IMG/VR virus record: IMGVR_UViG_3300043446_004967
Coordinates: 46,898-110,897 of that record
Reading direction: 5' to 3' (one strand)
Length of the DNA: 64,000 nucleotides
Source: a virus
The stretch's first letter is position 1, and each line of letters begins with the position of its first letter. The notes under the pieces are model-generated. The model searched no databases, was not told where the DNA came from, and worked only from the letters and a program-made list of their open reading frames with translations. Of this stretch, positions 8,120 to 56,415 are shown one piece after another. Position numbers and translations under genes: made by a program.

Positions 8120-9400
8120 ATAAAAAACCCTCAAAAAAAATGCGGGCGAAGAAACGCGAAGGGTATACTCATAGTAAGTCAGTGATAGTTGGACCCCGGA
8201 AAAATAATTTCCGCCGAAACGGCCGCCCCCGGATAAATAATTTCTACTATACTATCGTACAATACCACGTAATAAAATACCCGCCGACCCGCCGCAAGTT
8301 CTTGCAATATAACCTGCTATAAGACACCTTCGCATCCCGCAATGTAATTTACTATACTACCCCATAATGGGCGACAACCGCCCCTAACCCGATTTACTAT
8401 CTACTATCCGTAAAACCAATTTACTATCTACTATTTGAAAATCCCGTCTACTATTTGGAAATAAAATACCGTCTACTATCACGCAATCCAATTTACTATC
8501 TACTATTTGGGGCCGCAAATTCTTGCAGAAAATAGGGAAAAAGGGCTGCAATAACTTGCAAAAAATGCTTAGATAAAGGCCCGGCTAAGGTAAGATTGGC
8601 CTTTCTGCAAGAAATTGCAGGCACAAAAAAGGGCAAAAAAAGGGGCAAAACAGAGCTGCAATAACTTGCAAAAAATAGGAAAAGCGGGCAAGATGAGGCT
8701 CTGCAAATTCTTGCAGGACCGCAAAACAAGGCAAAAAGGGCCGCAATTTCTTGCAGAAAAGGGCCGCAATAACTTGCAAAAAATACCCAAAACAGCCCTT
8801 TTGATGACCTTCTCCCCGATAGGAGAATCCGCTAAACCCCCTTTTGATGACCTCCGCTCCGATAGGCGAAAACGCCCCGGTACCCCCAAAACAGGCGAAA
8901 ACAGGCCCAAAAGTGCCAAAACTAGGGCAGATTGAGCGAATCTGCTATGGTTTTGGGTCGGATTTGGGTCGAATTTACCCCCGATTTACCCCGAATATTC
9001 CGTCTAAAGATAACTTCTCTCTTAGTAGGTATCTTGGGTATCTTGGTTGTAGTTGGACCCCGGAAAAATAATTTTCGTTTTGTTGGCCCGGAAAAATTGC
9101 CGTTTATTGCCGTTTATTGCCGTTTATTGCATGTTATTGCAAGAACGCGCAGGGGATCCAAAAGGGATTGAGAAGGTATTGAGGGAGAGGGGTATAGGTA
9201 ACGTAGGGTATCTAGGGGAAGTGTGGCCCCGGAAAAATAATTTCGTAAAAGAACCCCGCAATAATATGCAGTAGTAGGTAATAACGTGAAGTACGGGAGG
9301 AGGTAACGGACGGGTATAGGTAGGGGAAGTGTGGCCCCGGAAAAATTAAACGCAAAATATTGCGGATACAAAAAAGCCCCGACACCGATCGACGATACCG
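8120..9400. repeat. repeat-rich non-coding block (possible origin, terminal-repeat junction or packaging/injection signal)
   Basis: multiple TACTAT, TGCAA-N3/4-TTGCA and CCCCGGAAAAATAATTT copies, (GCCGTTTATT)x3, two 24-27 bp direct repeats; no credible ORF. Confidence 0.75.
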
Positions 9401-9431
9401 AGGCTTTCAAAATAACGGGAACCCGGCCCCC

Positions 9432-9593
9432 CTACCTCCCCTTAGGAAACGGAGGAAATTGCAAATCATGCAGACGCGACACTTTCGCGTCAACCCGCCT
9501 TATCGCCCAAAAAAGCATTAACCAATTTAGAAAATTTAATAAATCGGCGTAATGGGTAAAGAACGCCGCTACGTCTTTTAATAAATCAGCCAT
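9432..9593 (-). CDS. small membrane protein (53 aa)
   Basis: MADLLKDVAAFFTHYADLLNFLNWLMLFWAIRR..., read by hand; closely follows the next small ORF. Confidence 0.5.
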   Translation of the reverse strand: MADLLKDVAAFFTHYADLLNFLNWLMLFWAIRRVDAKVSRLHDLQFPPFPKGR

Positions 9594-9596
9594 GCT

Positions 9597-9680
9597 TTAC
9601 AAGCCCTCAAAGTAAAAATGTAAAATATACACAGTAATGCTAATCAGCATTACCAAAATAACCCCTGCCTCCGGAGTCAT
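9597..9680 (-). CDS. 27-aa single-TM peptide
   Basis: MTPEAGVILVMLISITVYILHFYFEGL, read by hand. Confidence 0.45.
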   Translation of the reverse strand: MTPEAGVILVMLISITVYILHFYFEGL

Positions 9681-9688
9681 TAAAAACA

Positions 9689-9973
9689 TTATAACAGCAT
9701 CCCCCAAAAAAAGTCAAAGGCCACATGCCTTCGGTACATCGGACCCTTCTTTACCTCCGCCGTACCCTTGAAAAACGTGAGAAGCGGCGCCGCTTTGGTA
9801 TCCTCCCCTAAATAAACCCGAGTCTCCGAGGACTCATCCATAATCGCCGCGACCCGTGTAAAATAGGGCACCGCCTCAGACACAAATGAGCCGCGCCTAA
9901 ACACAACGCCCGTATCATGAGCCTGTCCGTTACGGTCGTAGGTGCGCCACAGGTAAGAAATATACTCTCTCAT
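9689..9973 (-). CDS. hypothetical protein
   Basis: 94-aa ORF in a tight operon. Confidence 0.6.
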   Translation of the reverse strand: MREYISYLWRTYDRNGQAHDTGVVFRRGSFVSEAVPYFTRVAAIMDESSETRVYLGEDTKAAPLLTFFKGTAEVKKGPMYRRHVAFDFFWGMLL

Positions 9974-9982
9974 ATACCCGCC

Positions 9983-10063
9983 TTAGTCCCCAGAAGACGT
10001 TATCACTAACGCGCCTAATACCAAAAACGGCACAAAAACAATCAAAATCTTTACCGTTTCCAT
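9983..10063 (-). CDS. 26-aa single-TM peptide
   Basis: METVKILIVFVPFLVLGALVITSSGD, AAGGGG RBS. Confidence 0.45.
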   Translation of the reverse strand: METVKILIVFVPFLVLGALVITSSGD

Positions 10064-10069
10064 AAAAAG

Positions 10070-10126
10070 CTACCCCTTCCATAAAATTTTAATAAACACA
10101 CATAGGAAACCTAAGAAAGGCAGCAT
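10070..10126 (-). CDS. 18-aa hydrophobic peptide
   Basis: MLPFLGFLCVFIKILWKG after AAGAGG RBS. Confidence 0.4.
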   Translation of the reverse strand: MLPFLGFLCVFIKILWKG

Positions 10127-10301
10127 TCTAACCTCTTTTATTGTTAAAAGATTAATTAAAAGACTAGGCAACCTCAGAGCACGTACCACACTGGCATAGG
10201 CCCTGCCCGTCAAAACGGAACTGGGCGAAACGCCCGCCTCTACACGGGCGCCCGCTGAGGTATACAGCACGGCAGCCTCTTTTTCGTCGGCTAATACCCC
10301 A

Positions 10302-10335
10302 AAACTACACCTTTTAGTGTCGCTTGTCGAGGGAC
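10302..10335 (-). promoter_or_regulatory. degenerate early promoter copy
   Basis: TCGACA-17-TAGTTT within GTCCCTCGACAAGCGAC. Confidence 0.55.
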
Positions 10336-10430
10336 AAAACAACGCACCCCTAAAAGAAACTGTGGTCAATCTGCTACGGTTTTTTGCCGCGAGGGGTAGC
10401 GGCCACACACATACCCGCCAAGGTGGCCGC

Positions 10431-10838
10431 TCATTTTCGCGCAATTTCTGAGGACAAGGGGTTAACTGCAACCCCTTGTCGGAGCACTTCGTAGTGAAGA
10501 TGAGGCCCCGTGGAATATCCCGTAGACCCTACGTAACCAATTATCGCCCCTCGCGTCACGGACGCCCCCGGCCTAACGCCATCAGCAAAACGGGATAAGT
10601 GCGCGTAACGAGTAGCTAAGCCCGCAGCGTGACGTAGCGTAACCATATTCCCGTAGCCGCCACGCCTTCCCGCAGACTTTACCACGCCGTCCCCCGTCGC
10701 ATATACGGGCGTCCCCAAAGGGGCGGCAAAATCCACGCCCTTATGCATACGAGAGCACTTAGCAATAGGATGACGCCGGCGTCCGAATCGAGAAGTAATC
10801 CGGGCGTGTTTAATAGGCAGCCCCAACGAAGGGCACAC
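10431..10838 (-). CDS. M23 family metallopeptidase domain
   Basis: HKGVDFAAP, GGYGN, YAHLS, STGPHLHYEV motifs; probably translated via a -1 frameshift from the upstream ORF. Confidence 0.93.
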   Translation of the reverse strand: MCPSLGLPIKHARITSRFGRRRHPIAKCSRMHKGVDFAAPLGTPVYATGDGVVKSAGRRGGYGNMVTLRHAAGLATRYAHLSRFADGVRPGASVTRGAIIGYVGSTGYSTGPHLHYEVLRQGVAVNPLSSEIARK

Positions 10839-10849
10839 GGCGCCCCCGG

Positions 10850-11473
10850 CTACGAGGCAGGCTTTTTTCCGGAAGGCTCTCCCTCTTTAGAAGGAAGGCC
10901 GTCGCCCCCAAAAAACCGATCAAGCAGACCCACGTCTGACTTAGGGGGAAGCTGTTCCCCCTCGTCCCCGGCTGGCGTATCGCCGTTGTACCTTGGGCCC
11001 GGCAAAACTCCGTCGGGGCCTGACCCCGAAGACGGCGCAATGACTTTCGTCTGCCCCTCCCCGTCGTGCTGGTCAACGAAGTCCCCCAAAGAGGACTCCT
11101 TCTCCGGGGCATACGCGACTTCCGCCCGAGCCGTTTGCCCCGAAGCAAGAAAAGACCTGCGAGCCGGGTAATAAGCATACTCGTTACCGCCCTTAACAAA
11201 AGCGACCCTCGCTCCCTTACCGTGAATCTCCGAAGCAAACCCTATTAATGCCCCCGGCCCCCCTTCCAAAATGTGCCGCTGGTAAACGGACTCGCATCCG
11301 TCAATGATTTTATCCTCAGTGTACGTATAGTCGCATACGTAGCGGGTAGCTCTTTGCGCCTCCGCCAAAGACGCCTCCAACCCTTTCAGCTGCGAGCGGG
11401 CGCTTAGTCTTCCGCTTACCGCTCCAACGACAACCGCAACTACGGCGACCGCCCCAAACAATTTTTTTGTCAT
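10850..11473 (-). CDS. membrane-anchored/secreted protein, N-terminal part of the M23 enzyme
   Basis: N-terminal hydrophobic anchor and coiled coil; ends 9 nt after an in-frame A-AAA-AAG. Confidence 0.75.
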   Translation of the reverse strand: MTKKLFGAVAVVAVVVGAVSGRLSARSQLKGLEASLAEAQRATRYVCDYTYTEDKIIDGCESVYQRHILEGGPGALIGFASEIHGKGARVAFVKGGNEYAYYPARRSFLASGQTARAEVAYAPEKESSLGDFVDQHDGEGQTKVIAPSSGSGPDGVLPGPRYNGDTPAGDEGEQLPPKSDVGLLDRFFGGDGLPSKEGEPSGKKPAS

Positions 11474-11519
11474 AATTTTTTAGTCTCCTTATTTTATAAA
11501 TTGCCCCCGGACAAGCCGT

Positions 11520-11852
11520 CTAAGGACGCAAAGGAGCAAGCAAAACGCTCGGACGAGATGCCCGCGCGGAGGGGTTCCCCTCATCGTCATCGTCATCGCC
11601 ATCTTCATGGCTGTCCCGCTCCGGAGCCGGAAGATACGACACGGGCGCCGCGCGAGGAATAGCCCGAAGATGCGGGCTAAGCGCGTGCTGGAATCCCAGC
11701 CCCAAGGAAAGCAGCGAAACGGCAATTAAGGCCGCCGCCGTTGTAATCCAAACCCCCCCACGCTCAGCGGTCTTCGCCTTGGCCCCGGCGAATAAGGCCG
11801 CAACACCGGAAATAATAGTAACGCCGAAAGCTAGTAAAATGTAATAGTCCAT
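11520..11852 (-). CDS. two-TM membrane protein
   Basis: two hydrophobic segments, acidic tail. Confidence 0.65.
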   Translation of the reverse strand: MDYYILLAFGVTIISGVAALFAGAKAKTAERGGVWITTAAALIAVSLLSLGLGFQHALSPHLRAIPRAAPVSYLPAPERDSHEDGDDDDDEGNPSARASRPSVLLAPLRP

Positions 11853-12312: not shown

Positions 12313-12828
12313 CTAAACGACCCCCTCGTCTTCGTAGCGTAAGCCGGTGTTGCTAAGCGTTAAACTCTTTACCGAGGCGCCTGTCTGCCCGGTGGAACCA
12401 AACCCCCCCGCACCCCGCTTGGTGTCGCCCAGCTCCTCAGCCCACGCTAAGGCGACCTTTTGCACGCGCGCAATAACCATCTGCGCCACCCGTTGCCCCG
12501 GCTCAATTAAGCACGGCTCGTCAGAAAGGTTAATTAATAAAACGCTAATCTCCCCCCGATAGTCGGAATCTACCGTTCCCGGCGCATTGGCGACAGTTAC
12601 CCCGAACTTAAGCGCAAGGCCGGAACGAGGGCGAAGCTGTGCCTCATAGCCTTCCGGCAGTTCCAACGCGATTCCGCACGGAATCAACGCGCGGCGCAAC
12701 GGTTGAAGGATCAGCGACTCGGGGATAGCGGCGTGCAGGTCCATACCTGCGCTTCCTTCCGTCGCGTAAGCGGGAAGCAGCGCCCCGCCACGCACGTCTT
12801 TAACTTTAACCCTGAGCATCAGTACCAT
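12313..12828 (-). CDS. dut: dUTP diphosphatase (trimeric)
   Basis: [36 protein letters not shown] motifs. Confidence 0.97.
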
Positions 12829-13554: not shown

Positions 13555-13971
13555 TTAAAGGTTAGCCGGAACGTCTAACAGCTCTGCAAGCGTTTGCAGA
13601 ACCTTCTTCTCCTCCTCGTTCGGCTCCTCACCGGCGACAACCCACCCGAAAGCATAAATGTCTTGCGCAATGTCCCCGGTGCCCTTCATCGCCACCACTT
13701 GACGCCGCAGCTCCAACTGGCCTTGTACATCCCCCACAAGGGACATGGCCTCGTTAAACGCCCCCCTAATCTCCTTCTCTTCAAAATAATTTCCGATTTT
13801 TTTGTGTCTTAGCAGTAACGCCAAGGTTACTTCACGCTCTGCGGGCTCCGCCTTCTTGTCTGCGTAAGCAACTAAGGCACACGCAGCAGCGGCCGCTGAC
13901 AACACCTTCTGACGCTCAACGCCTTCACCCGTAAACTTAGCGAACGTCTTACCAAAATTAAACAATCCCAT
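13555..13971 (-). CDS. TerB-family (tellurite resistance-like) protein
   Basis: AAACALVAYAD...E.E motif and C-terminal E..EK..L..LA..L typical of phage TerB. Confidence 0.8.
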   Translation of the reverse strand: MGLFNFGKTFAKFTGEGVERQKVLSAAAAACALVAYADKKAEPAEREVTLALLLRHKKIGNYFEEKEIRGAFNEAMSLVGDVQGQLELRRQVVAMKGTGDIAQDIYAFGWVVAGEEPNEEEKKVLQTLAELLDVPANL

Positions 13972-46402: not shown

Positions 46403-46478
46403 TGGTTCTCCGGACAGGATTTGAACCTATGACCCGGGCGTTATGAGCGCCTTGCTCTAACCTCTGAGCTACCGGAGA
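46403..46478 (-). tRNA. tRNA with CAU anticodon (probably Ile2, possibly elongator Met)
   Basis: 76-nt cloverleaf TCTCCGG...CTCATAA...GGTTCAAATCC...CCGGAGA-A-CCA; C4-G69/C5-G68 favour Ile2. Confidence 0.92.
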
Positions 46479-53978: not shown

Positions 53979-54485
53979 TTAAATATCCTTGACAAACGCC
54001 GATCCACGGTTAACCCACCCCGGAAGGTCGTCCCCGTATTTTTGCGGATTGGCTCGGGCAAGACTTGCCCAGAAACGGAAACGGCGTTGCAATAAAGCGT
54101 AGTACACTGTCCGTTCCCCCTTAGCCTTAACCGCAGCAAGCGTGGCGGGACCAAGTTTGCCGTCACCTACGGCCCCCACAATGCTTTGCAGCTCTTTGAC
54201 GGCCCGGGATTCCCCTGCGTTAACGCAGAAGTCAAACAGCAGGTCGGCAAGGTCGGCGTTGTCTATTCCCGATAATCCAACGCGGTCAAAATACAGCGCG
54301 TATACTTGCACTGCCTCCTGCGCCGGTAACACCCTTAGCTGCGCCGCCGTCAGGCTTTTTCCGGTCAAGTCCTTGTAAAACGGCAGCGTTATGCCCCAAT
54401 TCGTCGGGCCGCCCTGATCTACGGTATACCCGCCTTCTCTCTCCAGCACTTTGGCTATGGCGGCGTCTCGCGAGGCATTGCTCAT
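53979..54485 (-). CDS. endolysin, glycoside hydrolase family 108 + PG-binding domain
   Basis: EGGY..D.GG.TNWGIT, FD..VNAG, DG.LGP.TL, GWVNR. Confidence 0.92.
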   Translation of the reverse strand: MSNASRDAAIAKVLEREGGYTVDQGGPTNWGITLPFYKDLTGKSLTAAQLRVLPAQEAVQVYALYFDRVGLSGIDNADLADLLFDFCVNAGESRAVKELQSIVGAVGDGKLGPATLAAVKAKGERTVYYALLQRRFRFWASLARANPQKYGDDLPGWVNRGSAFVKDI

Positions 54486-56034: not shown

Positions 56035-56415
56035 TTACTCGCGAACTAGCGGGTATGCGGGCTTCCGTGTGCTTACCGGGGGAAGGGCTTCCCCGGCTAA
56101 CGGCATCCCTTTTCTCGGTGAAAACGCGCAGTTTTGTGCGGCCTGTGTCAATAGACCCATCTGCGTCGCCAACGCGGCCAGTCGTTCTTCTACGCCGGCT
56201 AACTTAGCCGTCTGGTGACGTTCCTCAAGGAGCGTCTGGTCCCCTTTCTCAATCAGACGGTCTTCCCTCGAAAGTTGCTTCGTTGCAAAGTCTTGTAGAC
56301 CCCCTAGAAATTGCAAAAGAAAATAAATCACCAGAGCAAGCGCGGCGATGCCCGCAGTCTGCCCCGAAAAGGCTTGCGCTAGGGTGAGAGGCGACTTTGG
56401 TTTAGCGGGGGTCAT
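56035..56415 (-). CDS. membrane protein with coiled coil (holin/spanin-like)
   Basis: single TM helix followed by a coiled coil, near the lysis gene. Confidence 0.5.
   Translation of the reverse strand: MTPAKPKSPLTLAQAFSGQTAGIAALALVIYFLLQFLGGLQDFATKQLSREDRLIEKGDQTLLEERHQTAKLAGVEERLAALATQMGLLTQAAQNCAFSPRKGMPLAGEALPPVSTRKPAYPLVRE

Follow-up and report, generated by a model that had tools for sequence, protein, structure and literature searches.

In mobile elements of the IS3/IS911 type, orfA is a short upstream open reading frame (ORF) with an A_AAA_AAG-type heptamer close to its end, at which the downstream catalytic domain encoded by orfB, which has no efficient start of its own, is fused to the orfA product. 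A Shine-Dalgarno (SD)-like stimulator upstream of the heptamer and a nearby 0-frame stop belong to this arrangement, and the shift gives the longer, active protein. The frameshift site of Escherichia coli dnaX consists of the shift site AAAAAAG, an internal SD sequence 10 nt on its 5′ side and a stem-loop on its 3′ side (PMC5009743, PMC4344849), and the tail assembly chaperone genes G/GT of double-stranded DNA phages carry a conserved −1 frameshift that produces a short and a C-terminally extended protein at a fixed ratio (PMC10885494). Here we analyze a 64,000-nucleotide stretch of viral DNA (hereafter the window), which comprises bases 46,898–110,897 of the 110,897-bp IMG/VR virus record IMGVR_UViG_3300043446_004967; the record carries direct terminal repeats and originates from a freshwater metagenome. 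On the minus strand of the window, an ORF with a hydrophobic N-terminus, referred to as ORF-A, is followed in the −1 frame, on the same strand, by an M23 peptidase domain. The evidence described below suggests that a conserved −1 programmed ribosomal frameshift probably joins ORF-A and the M23 frame into one recoded gene. An initial annotation of the window, made from the letters alone, had proposed such a joining of a membrane anchor to an M23 peptidase, and its interpretation as a whole is partly supported.

The minus strand at the junction reads ...GGC CTT CCT TCT AAA GAG GGA GAG CCT TCC GGA AAA AAG CCT GCC TCG TAG, and the features around it are listed in Table 1. The end of ORF-A given in the initial annotation, with A-AAA-AAG in frame, agrees with the sequence base for base, and the AGGGAG element lies exactly 10 nt upstream, as had been stated. 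The further claim that the −1 frame is open into the M23 domain is confirmed by an open frame of 151 codons with a full match to PF01551, and the junction peptide that had been written out, ...SGKK/ACLV..., is correct. The 0 frame and the −1 frame overlap over 37 nt in all, and the heptamer falls inside this overlap. After a shift, reading would proceed from GCC 10862, and the predicted fusion protein would have 347 residues (204 + 143; ~36 kDa). The duplex of AGGGAG with the anti-SD sequence has a calculated stability of −8.5 kcal/mol. The median duplex at ORF starts is −5.7 kcal/mol versus −2.8 kcal/mol at random positions, indicating that the genes of this genome use SD sequences.

The combination of elements at the junction is unique within the genome. 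Counting both strands, there are 69 copies of the heptamer AAAAAAG, of which nine stand in the slippery phase within ORFs, and beyond these in-phase heptamers the −1 frame stays open for 145 codons at ORF-A versus 4–29 codons at the other eight. An SD-like tetramer is found 6–18 nt upstream of six of the 69 heptamers, and the hexamer AGGGAG at the ORF-A site only. No informative signal was obtained from third-position GC content by frame across the junction, and a promoter and terminator scan detected nothing between ORF-A and the M23 frame. No phage tRNA-Lys is encoded within the window, so the slipping tRNAs would come from the host; a single tRNA-Met (CAT) gene was observed at 46403–46478 on the minus strand.

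At the protein level, the arrangement is conserved in relatives. The word-indexed homologue search, which covered proteins of 113–363 residues for ORF-A and of 266–2000 residues for M23, yielded four homologues of ORF-A (55–62% identity over the aligned part; 202–209 residues or partial), and cluster members bring the family to nine proteins from four lineages (57–65% identity). In all nine members, an invariant KKPAS is followed by the stop. K196 and G198, whose codons hold the SD-like element in the window, are also invariant across the family, and the spacing from the Gly residue to KK is constant at four codons of variable sequence, even though the acidic linker upstream contains in-frame indels. 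Four contigs (14,352, 9,987, 4,647, and 12,808 bp) carry ORF-A together with a separately called M23 protein of 101–106 residues, 72–82% identical to that of the window. A continuous ORF in relatives, which the initial annotation had set against its own reading, was not encountered: all nine ORF-A proteins stop after KKPAS, and M23 is called separately. Likewise, no fused form of ORF-A and M23 was found among proteins of 113–363 residues, a range that would accommodate the ~347-residue fusion, or among those of 266–2000 residues. The other M23 matches at 266–2000 residues were bacterial MepM-type enzymes (59–69% identity), and the scans of viral, metagenome, and genome contigs gave either M23 homologues of no more than 65% identity or nothing; no DNA match to the region was found among GenBank phages.

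The M23 calls in the relatives (P0007, P0008, P0130, and P0131) begin at the internal Met of MHKGVDF (M47), or at V51 in the case of P0131. D52, H96, H129, and H131 are invariant in all five aligned M23 sequences, and H48 is shared by the window's sequence and three calls from relatives; the fourth call, P0131, starts downstream of H48 and thereby loses the first zinc-ligand histidine. The calls begin inside or after the HxxxD motif, and a functional protein cannot result from such starts. The M23 domain is more conserved than ORF-A (72–82% versus 57–65% identity), and this better conservation, together with the retention of the catalytic residues, indicates that it is expressed. At the protein level, KK, the position of the stop, and the split are conserved in four lineages. 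The presence of the same split throughout a diverged clade suggests that it is ancestral and maintained under selection, which makes a recent pseudogene, or independent assembly errors, unlikely.

The properties of ORF-A are those of an anchor followed by a spacer. Its hydrophobic segment, which is conserved in full-length relatives, could serve as a membrane anchor or be a signal that is not cleaved, and the region that follows is predicted, with low confidence, to be helical. The tail of ~85 residues is unstructured by prediction and linker-like, with nothing attached at its end. ORF-A belongs to no Pfam or PHROG family, and a profile search against 1.84 billion representatives matched only its own family, which is specific to this phage clade and has nine known members. 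An AlphaFold2 model from a five-sequence alignment had a pLDDT of 42, too low for a fold search, and no usable look-alike was found in the ESM Atlas. Profile–profile comparison with 30 MepM proteins (hhalign) gave a probability of 0.4%, and no N-terminal domain of the Csd3_N2 or OapA type was matched by Pfam.

Judged from its profile match, the M23 domain is complete, with intact catalytic motifs. Solved relatives match at E = 1e-37, the best being 3SLU, 6MUK, ShyA, and Csd3. The conserved fold starts at about residue 21–24 of the −1 frame (~10820), ~13–16 residues past the shift site. ORF-A is not homologous to the N-terminal domains of MepM; a captured M23 domain appears to have been attached to one of the phage's own proteins. 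Among 160 loci of M23 homologues (viral and metagenome contigs), the long N-terminal extension is absent in seven, and the M23 proteins at 38 viral loci that were inspected are mostly membrane-anchored or part of a much larger protein.

A short stretch at the beginning of the −1 frame may bear on the origin of the domain. The first codons after the upstream stop (10863–10886, minus strand) encode RGRAFRKK, which was aligned by BLAST, with a gap of 9–11 residues, to a strongly conserved G-[RK]-S-[LIV]-R-K motif preceding M23 in bacterial MepM-type homologues; the match is short and statistically borderline. The stretch lies upstream of the shift site and would thus not be part of the fusion protein. 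The SD-like hexamer falls on its Gly-Arg codons and the slippery run on its Arg-Lys-Lys codons, and the stretch may mark the breakpoint at which the 3′ part of a host mepM gene was captured.

We infer the slip itself, its efficiency, the topology of the products, and their biological role from these features, and propose the following mechanism. Ribosomes would start at ATG 11473 and synthesize the anchor, a small domain, and the long acidic linker. At GGA AAA AAG, the two tRNA-Lys molecules in the P and A sites would re-pair one base back, on AAA AAA, and the slip would be helped by the G/C-rich hairpin at the mRNA entrance and by pairing of the 16S anti-SD sequence with AGGGAG 10 nt upstream. 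Without a slip, ribosomes would terminate three codons further on and release the 207-residue anchor-only protein, whereas those that slip would read ...SGKK/ACLV... and continue into M23, giving the ~347-residue protein. The N-terminal anchor of the fusion would position an active zinc peptidoglycan endopeptidase on the outer side of the inner membrane, where it may serve in local wall remodelling or as a lysis accessory, separate from the GH108 lysozyme described below.

Several observations weigh against the frameshift. Cassettes of such a layout are expected by chance when many windows are scanned, and thus the layout alone is not proof. The conservation of KKPAS is suggestive and not decisive, because ~40% of the positions in the ORF-A tail are invariant. 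A_AAA_AAG is shiftiest in hosts without tRNA-Lys(CUU), and the nearest homologues of the M23 domain here are alphaproteobacterial. The downstream structure is a further weak point. The initial annotation had pointed to a GC-rich hairpin or pseudoknot: the hairpin exists (−21 kcal/mol), but its stability does not exceed that of dinucleotide-shuffled sequences (z = −0.4; z = +0.4 for a longer fold), and no pseudoknot was shown. The upper stem of the hairpin begins 14 nt past the heptamer, and the lower stem only 3 nt past it, whereas a structure at the mRNA entrance would lie ~5–9 nt past the site. In the Rfam search, no frameshift element was matched; the sole hit, to blv_FSE (14 bits, E = 7), was at chance level and lay at a different place in the window. 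Finally, the alternative start GTG 10838 sits exactly at the boundary of the M23 domain, so that a free-standing domain is possible, and there are phage M23 proteins, PHROG matches among them, that begin at this boundary, some of them with an ATG and a clear SD sequence.

The last two points lead to the main alternative, in which ORF-A is a complete membrane protein, the M23 domain is a second cistron translated by re-initiation or by a de novo start at GTG 10838, and the heptamer with AGGGAG is coincidental or gives a minor by-product. The initial annotation had stated that the M23 frame has no good start of its own. This holds for ATG 10748, which lacks an SD sequence and cuts into the fold, but not for the GTG, which is preceded at 4 nt by GGGGG and lies 9 nt past the ORF-A stop. 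With this SD-like G-run (−8.6 kcal/mol with the anti-SD sequence) and the GTG at the domain boundary, termination and re-initiation yielding a free 14-kDa domain is a live rival, and the annotation of the relatives as two genes, as well as the seven of 160 homologue loci in which M23 starts near the domain boundary, some with ATG and SD, is in accord with it. However, the 135-residue product (14.3 kDa) would have no export signal (maximum Kyte–Doolittle value 1.18) in a phage that already has a separate GH108 lysozyme. The GTG and the G-run are buried in the −21 kcal/mol hairpin, the 4-nt spacer is short, and the gene caller rejected the GTG on this contig (P0006). Furthermore, the two-cistron explanation leaves unaccounted for an in-phase heptamer preceded at 10 nt by an SD hexamer, a combination found once in the genome, an ORF-A tail that resembles a linker and ends at the junction, and the invariant KK and stop position. 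We therefore consider separate translation possible but unlikely; even if re-initiation takes place, the heptamer with an SD sequence at 10 nt is expected to yield some fusion protein.

Three further explanations were considered. Transcriptional slippage, in which the polymerase adds an A to the run of six so that some mRNAs with A7 encode the fusion in one frame, would suit the homopolymer at the junction, where one extra A puts the two frames in register. Bacterial polymerase slippage sites, however, use runs of about 8–9 or more, the run here has only six A, and both the SD-like element 10 nt away and the heptamer's phase are characteristic of slippage by the ribosome, not by the polymerase; this explanation is very unlikely. 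Little more can be said for the view that only ORF-A is functional and that M23, left over from a captured host mepM gene, is decaying or untranslated. The M23 frame does lack a canonical start, its nearest homologues are the bacterial MepM-type enzymes, and the −1 frame begins right at the MepM-like motif, as a capture breakpoint might. Yet at least four lineages have a complete, open M23 frame, with an identity above that of ORF-A and with invariant zinc and catalytic residues, a pattern that marks a translated protein under purifying selection, and we regard a remnant as highly improbable. An assembly or sequencing error, with a true run of A7 and a continuous gene, has to be considered, since homopolymers are classic indel sites and the record is a metagenome assembly. 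The run of six A, which the initial annotation had asked to see confirmed, held without an indel in independently assembled material: two runs of the probable source sample each gave a Logan contig (9.7 and 10.1 kb, at depth 67 and 50) that matches 10300–11600 without a difference or gap, and a further piece of 151 nt that covers 10738–10888, taken from a separate study (2021, aquatic), is identical, including A6 and AGGGAG. In four diverged lineages, from assemblies by JGI, ENA, and Logan, the stop also falls at the same place, so an error of this kind is the least credible of the explanations. Even taken together, transcriptional slippage, an untranslated remnant, and an assembly error account for a small part of the probability.

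The conserved −1 frameshift, which we favor as the probable explanation, can be compared with the described systems. The likeness to E. coli dnaX asserted in the initial annotation agrees with the literature with respect to AAAAAAG, the SD sequence at 10 nt, and a 3′ stem-loop (PMC5009743, PMC4344849). As in dnaX, AAAAAAG would be read by two tRNA-Lys, and two products with a common N-terminus, tau and gamma in E. coli, are predicted for the phage. In dnaX, however, the shifted frame stops almost at once and the shift makes the shorter product, whereas the phage shift would add a whole catalytic domain of 143 residues; the phage hairpin is also closer to the site and statistically unremarkable. 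Given that the DnaX element of Rfam was not matched, the likeness is one of layout and not of descent. The outcome is nearer to that in the IS3-family transposases or in phage G/GT, because the shift adds a domain instead of truncating the protein. The IS3/IS911 system differs in that it joins a DNA-binding domain to a DDE transposase in a mobile element, whereas here a membrane anchor and a peptidoglycan peptidase are encoded in a lytic-type phage genome, and G/GT differs in that structural-assembly genes, not a peptidase, are involved. No peptidase or M23 case is mentioned in a review of recoding or in the PRFect paper (PMC10885494), and a literature search found no report of an M23 peptidase joined by a frameshift. 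With respect to its enzyme part, the locus resembles the M23 DD-endopeptidases of the MepM, ShyA, and Csd3 type: the domain is 59–69% identical to alphaproteobacterial MepM-type enzymes and has all the catalytic motifs, and the fusion protein would reproduce their order of anchor, spacer, and C-terminal M23. In contrast to these enzymes, the N-terminal part in the phage is non-homologous and the two parts lie in different frames.

Table 1. Coordinates in the window of the features of the ORF-A/M23 locus and of other genes discussed in the text.
Feature	Position	Strand	Description
SD of ORF-A, AAGGAG	11485–11490	−	11 nt before ATG; anti-SD duplex −9.3 kcal/mol
ORF-A, 0-frame gene	10850–11473	−	207 aa, 21.6 kDa; ATG start
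N-terminal hydrophobic segment of ORF-A	11405–11461	−	residues 5–23; mean Kyte–Doolittle value 2.13; conserved in full-length relatives
ORF-A tail	10853–11116	−	residues 120–207; Gly/Pro/Ser/Asp/Glu-rich, acidic (pI 4.35); no predicted secondary structure; in-frame indels among relatives
Internal SD-like AGGGAG	10879–10884	−	10-nt spacer (10878–10869) to heptamer; within conserved K196/G198 codons of ORF-A
Slippery heptamer A_AAA_AAG	10862–10868	−	X_XXY_YYZ phase of ORF-A; encodes invariant K203 and K204; proposed −1 shift site
0-frame stop TAG of ORF-A	10850–10852	−	9 nt after heptamer (12 nt in the genome-wide heptamer count); same position in 9 of 9 family members
Downstream hairpin	10820–10858	−	−21 kcal/mol; 8-bp G/C-rich upper stem 10847–10829; encloses GTG 10838 and G-run
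−1 frame, open stop to stop	10431–10886	−	151 codons; closed upstream by TAA 10889–10887, ends at TGA 10433–10431
Alternative start GTG, M23 frame	10836–10838	−	9 nt past ORF-A stop; GGGGG 4 nt upstream, anti-SD duplex −8.6 kcal/mol
Peptidase_M23 core (PF01551)	10458–10751	−	full profile (1–96), E = 1.2e-35, 122 bits; HxxxD, catalytic His, and HxH present
ATG of automatic gene call	10746–10748	−	105 aa; no SD (−0.8 kcal/mol); removes conserved strand preceding HxxxD
dUTPase (PF00692, E = 4e-27) and TerB-like protein (PF05099, E = 7e-8)	12313–12828 and 13555–13971	−	just upstream of ORF-A/M23
GH108-type lysozyme (PF05838, E = 6e-17)	53979–54485	−	168 aa; ~43 kb from M23; among Gly/Thr/Ser-rich tail-fibre-like genes

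The dUTPase and the TerB-like protein among the neighbors indicate that the M23 module sits with nucleotide-metabolism and auxiliary genes, not with structural genes. The only other recognizable peptidoglycan hydrolase found in the record is the GH108-type lysozyme, which is likely the endolysin or else a virion-associated lysin; T4-type lysozyme, SLT, amidase_2, M15_4, and GH25 families were searched for and are absent. The separate lysozyme at this distance supports the view that M23 is not the main endolysin. Close to the GH108 gene, at 56035–56415, a 126-residue protein with a membrane segment and a coiled coil was also observed.

Directly upstream of ORF-A, the minus strand encodes a 110-residue protein (11520–11852) with two hydrophobic helices and a strongly acidic, Asp-rich C-terminal tail. 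It has no Pfam or PHROG match; its topology is holin-like, and it could be part, with ORF-A/M23, of a small module that acts on the envelope. An ORF-poor, A/T-richer region of ~1.6 kb (8500–10070) lies just downstream of the M23 gene. It contains at least seven copies of a palindromic 15-mer (consensus CYGCAA-N3-CTTGCA) in direct and inverted orientation, a 26-nt repeat with two exact copies 108 nt apart and two degenerate copies (65–73% identical), and a 10-nt tandem repeat, ATTGCCGTTT, in three copies. The region has the look of clustered protein-binding sites, as in an origin or a regulatory region.

The recoding proposed here is probably of a known type in a new gene context. A more far-reaching view, which we consider rather doubtful, is that throughout a clade of freshwater phages the conserved signal sets a fixed ratio of anchor-only to anchor-M23 protein, that the short form tempers or positions the long one, as in tau/gamma or holin/antiholin pairs, and that the cassette itself was exapted from captured mepM codons. 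For annotation, there is a practical consequence. The automatic calls in five independent assemblies truncate M23 to 101–106 residues, and one of them loses a zinc ligand; these truncated calls amount to a systematic annotation error for the clade, and the real M23 product is therefore missing from the protein databases. If the frameshift takes place as proposed, programmed frameshifting in phages would no longer be confined to structural genes and polymerases but would include a cell-wall enzyme, and a captured host peptidase domain could be grafted onto a phage anchor without an in-frame fusion, with the ratio of tethered peptidase to bare anchor being fixed.

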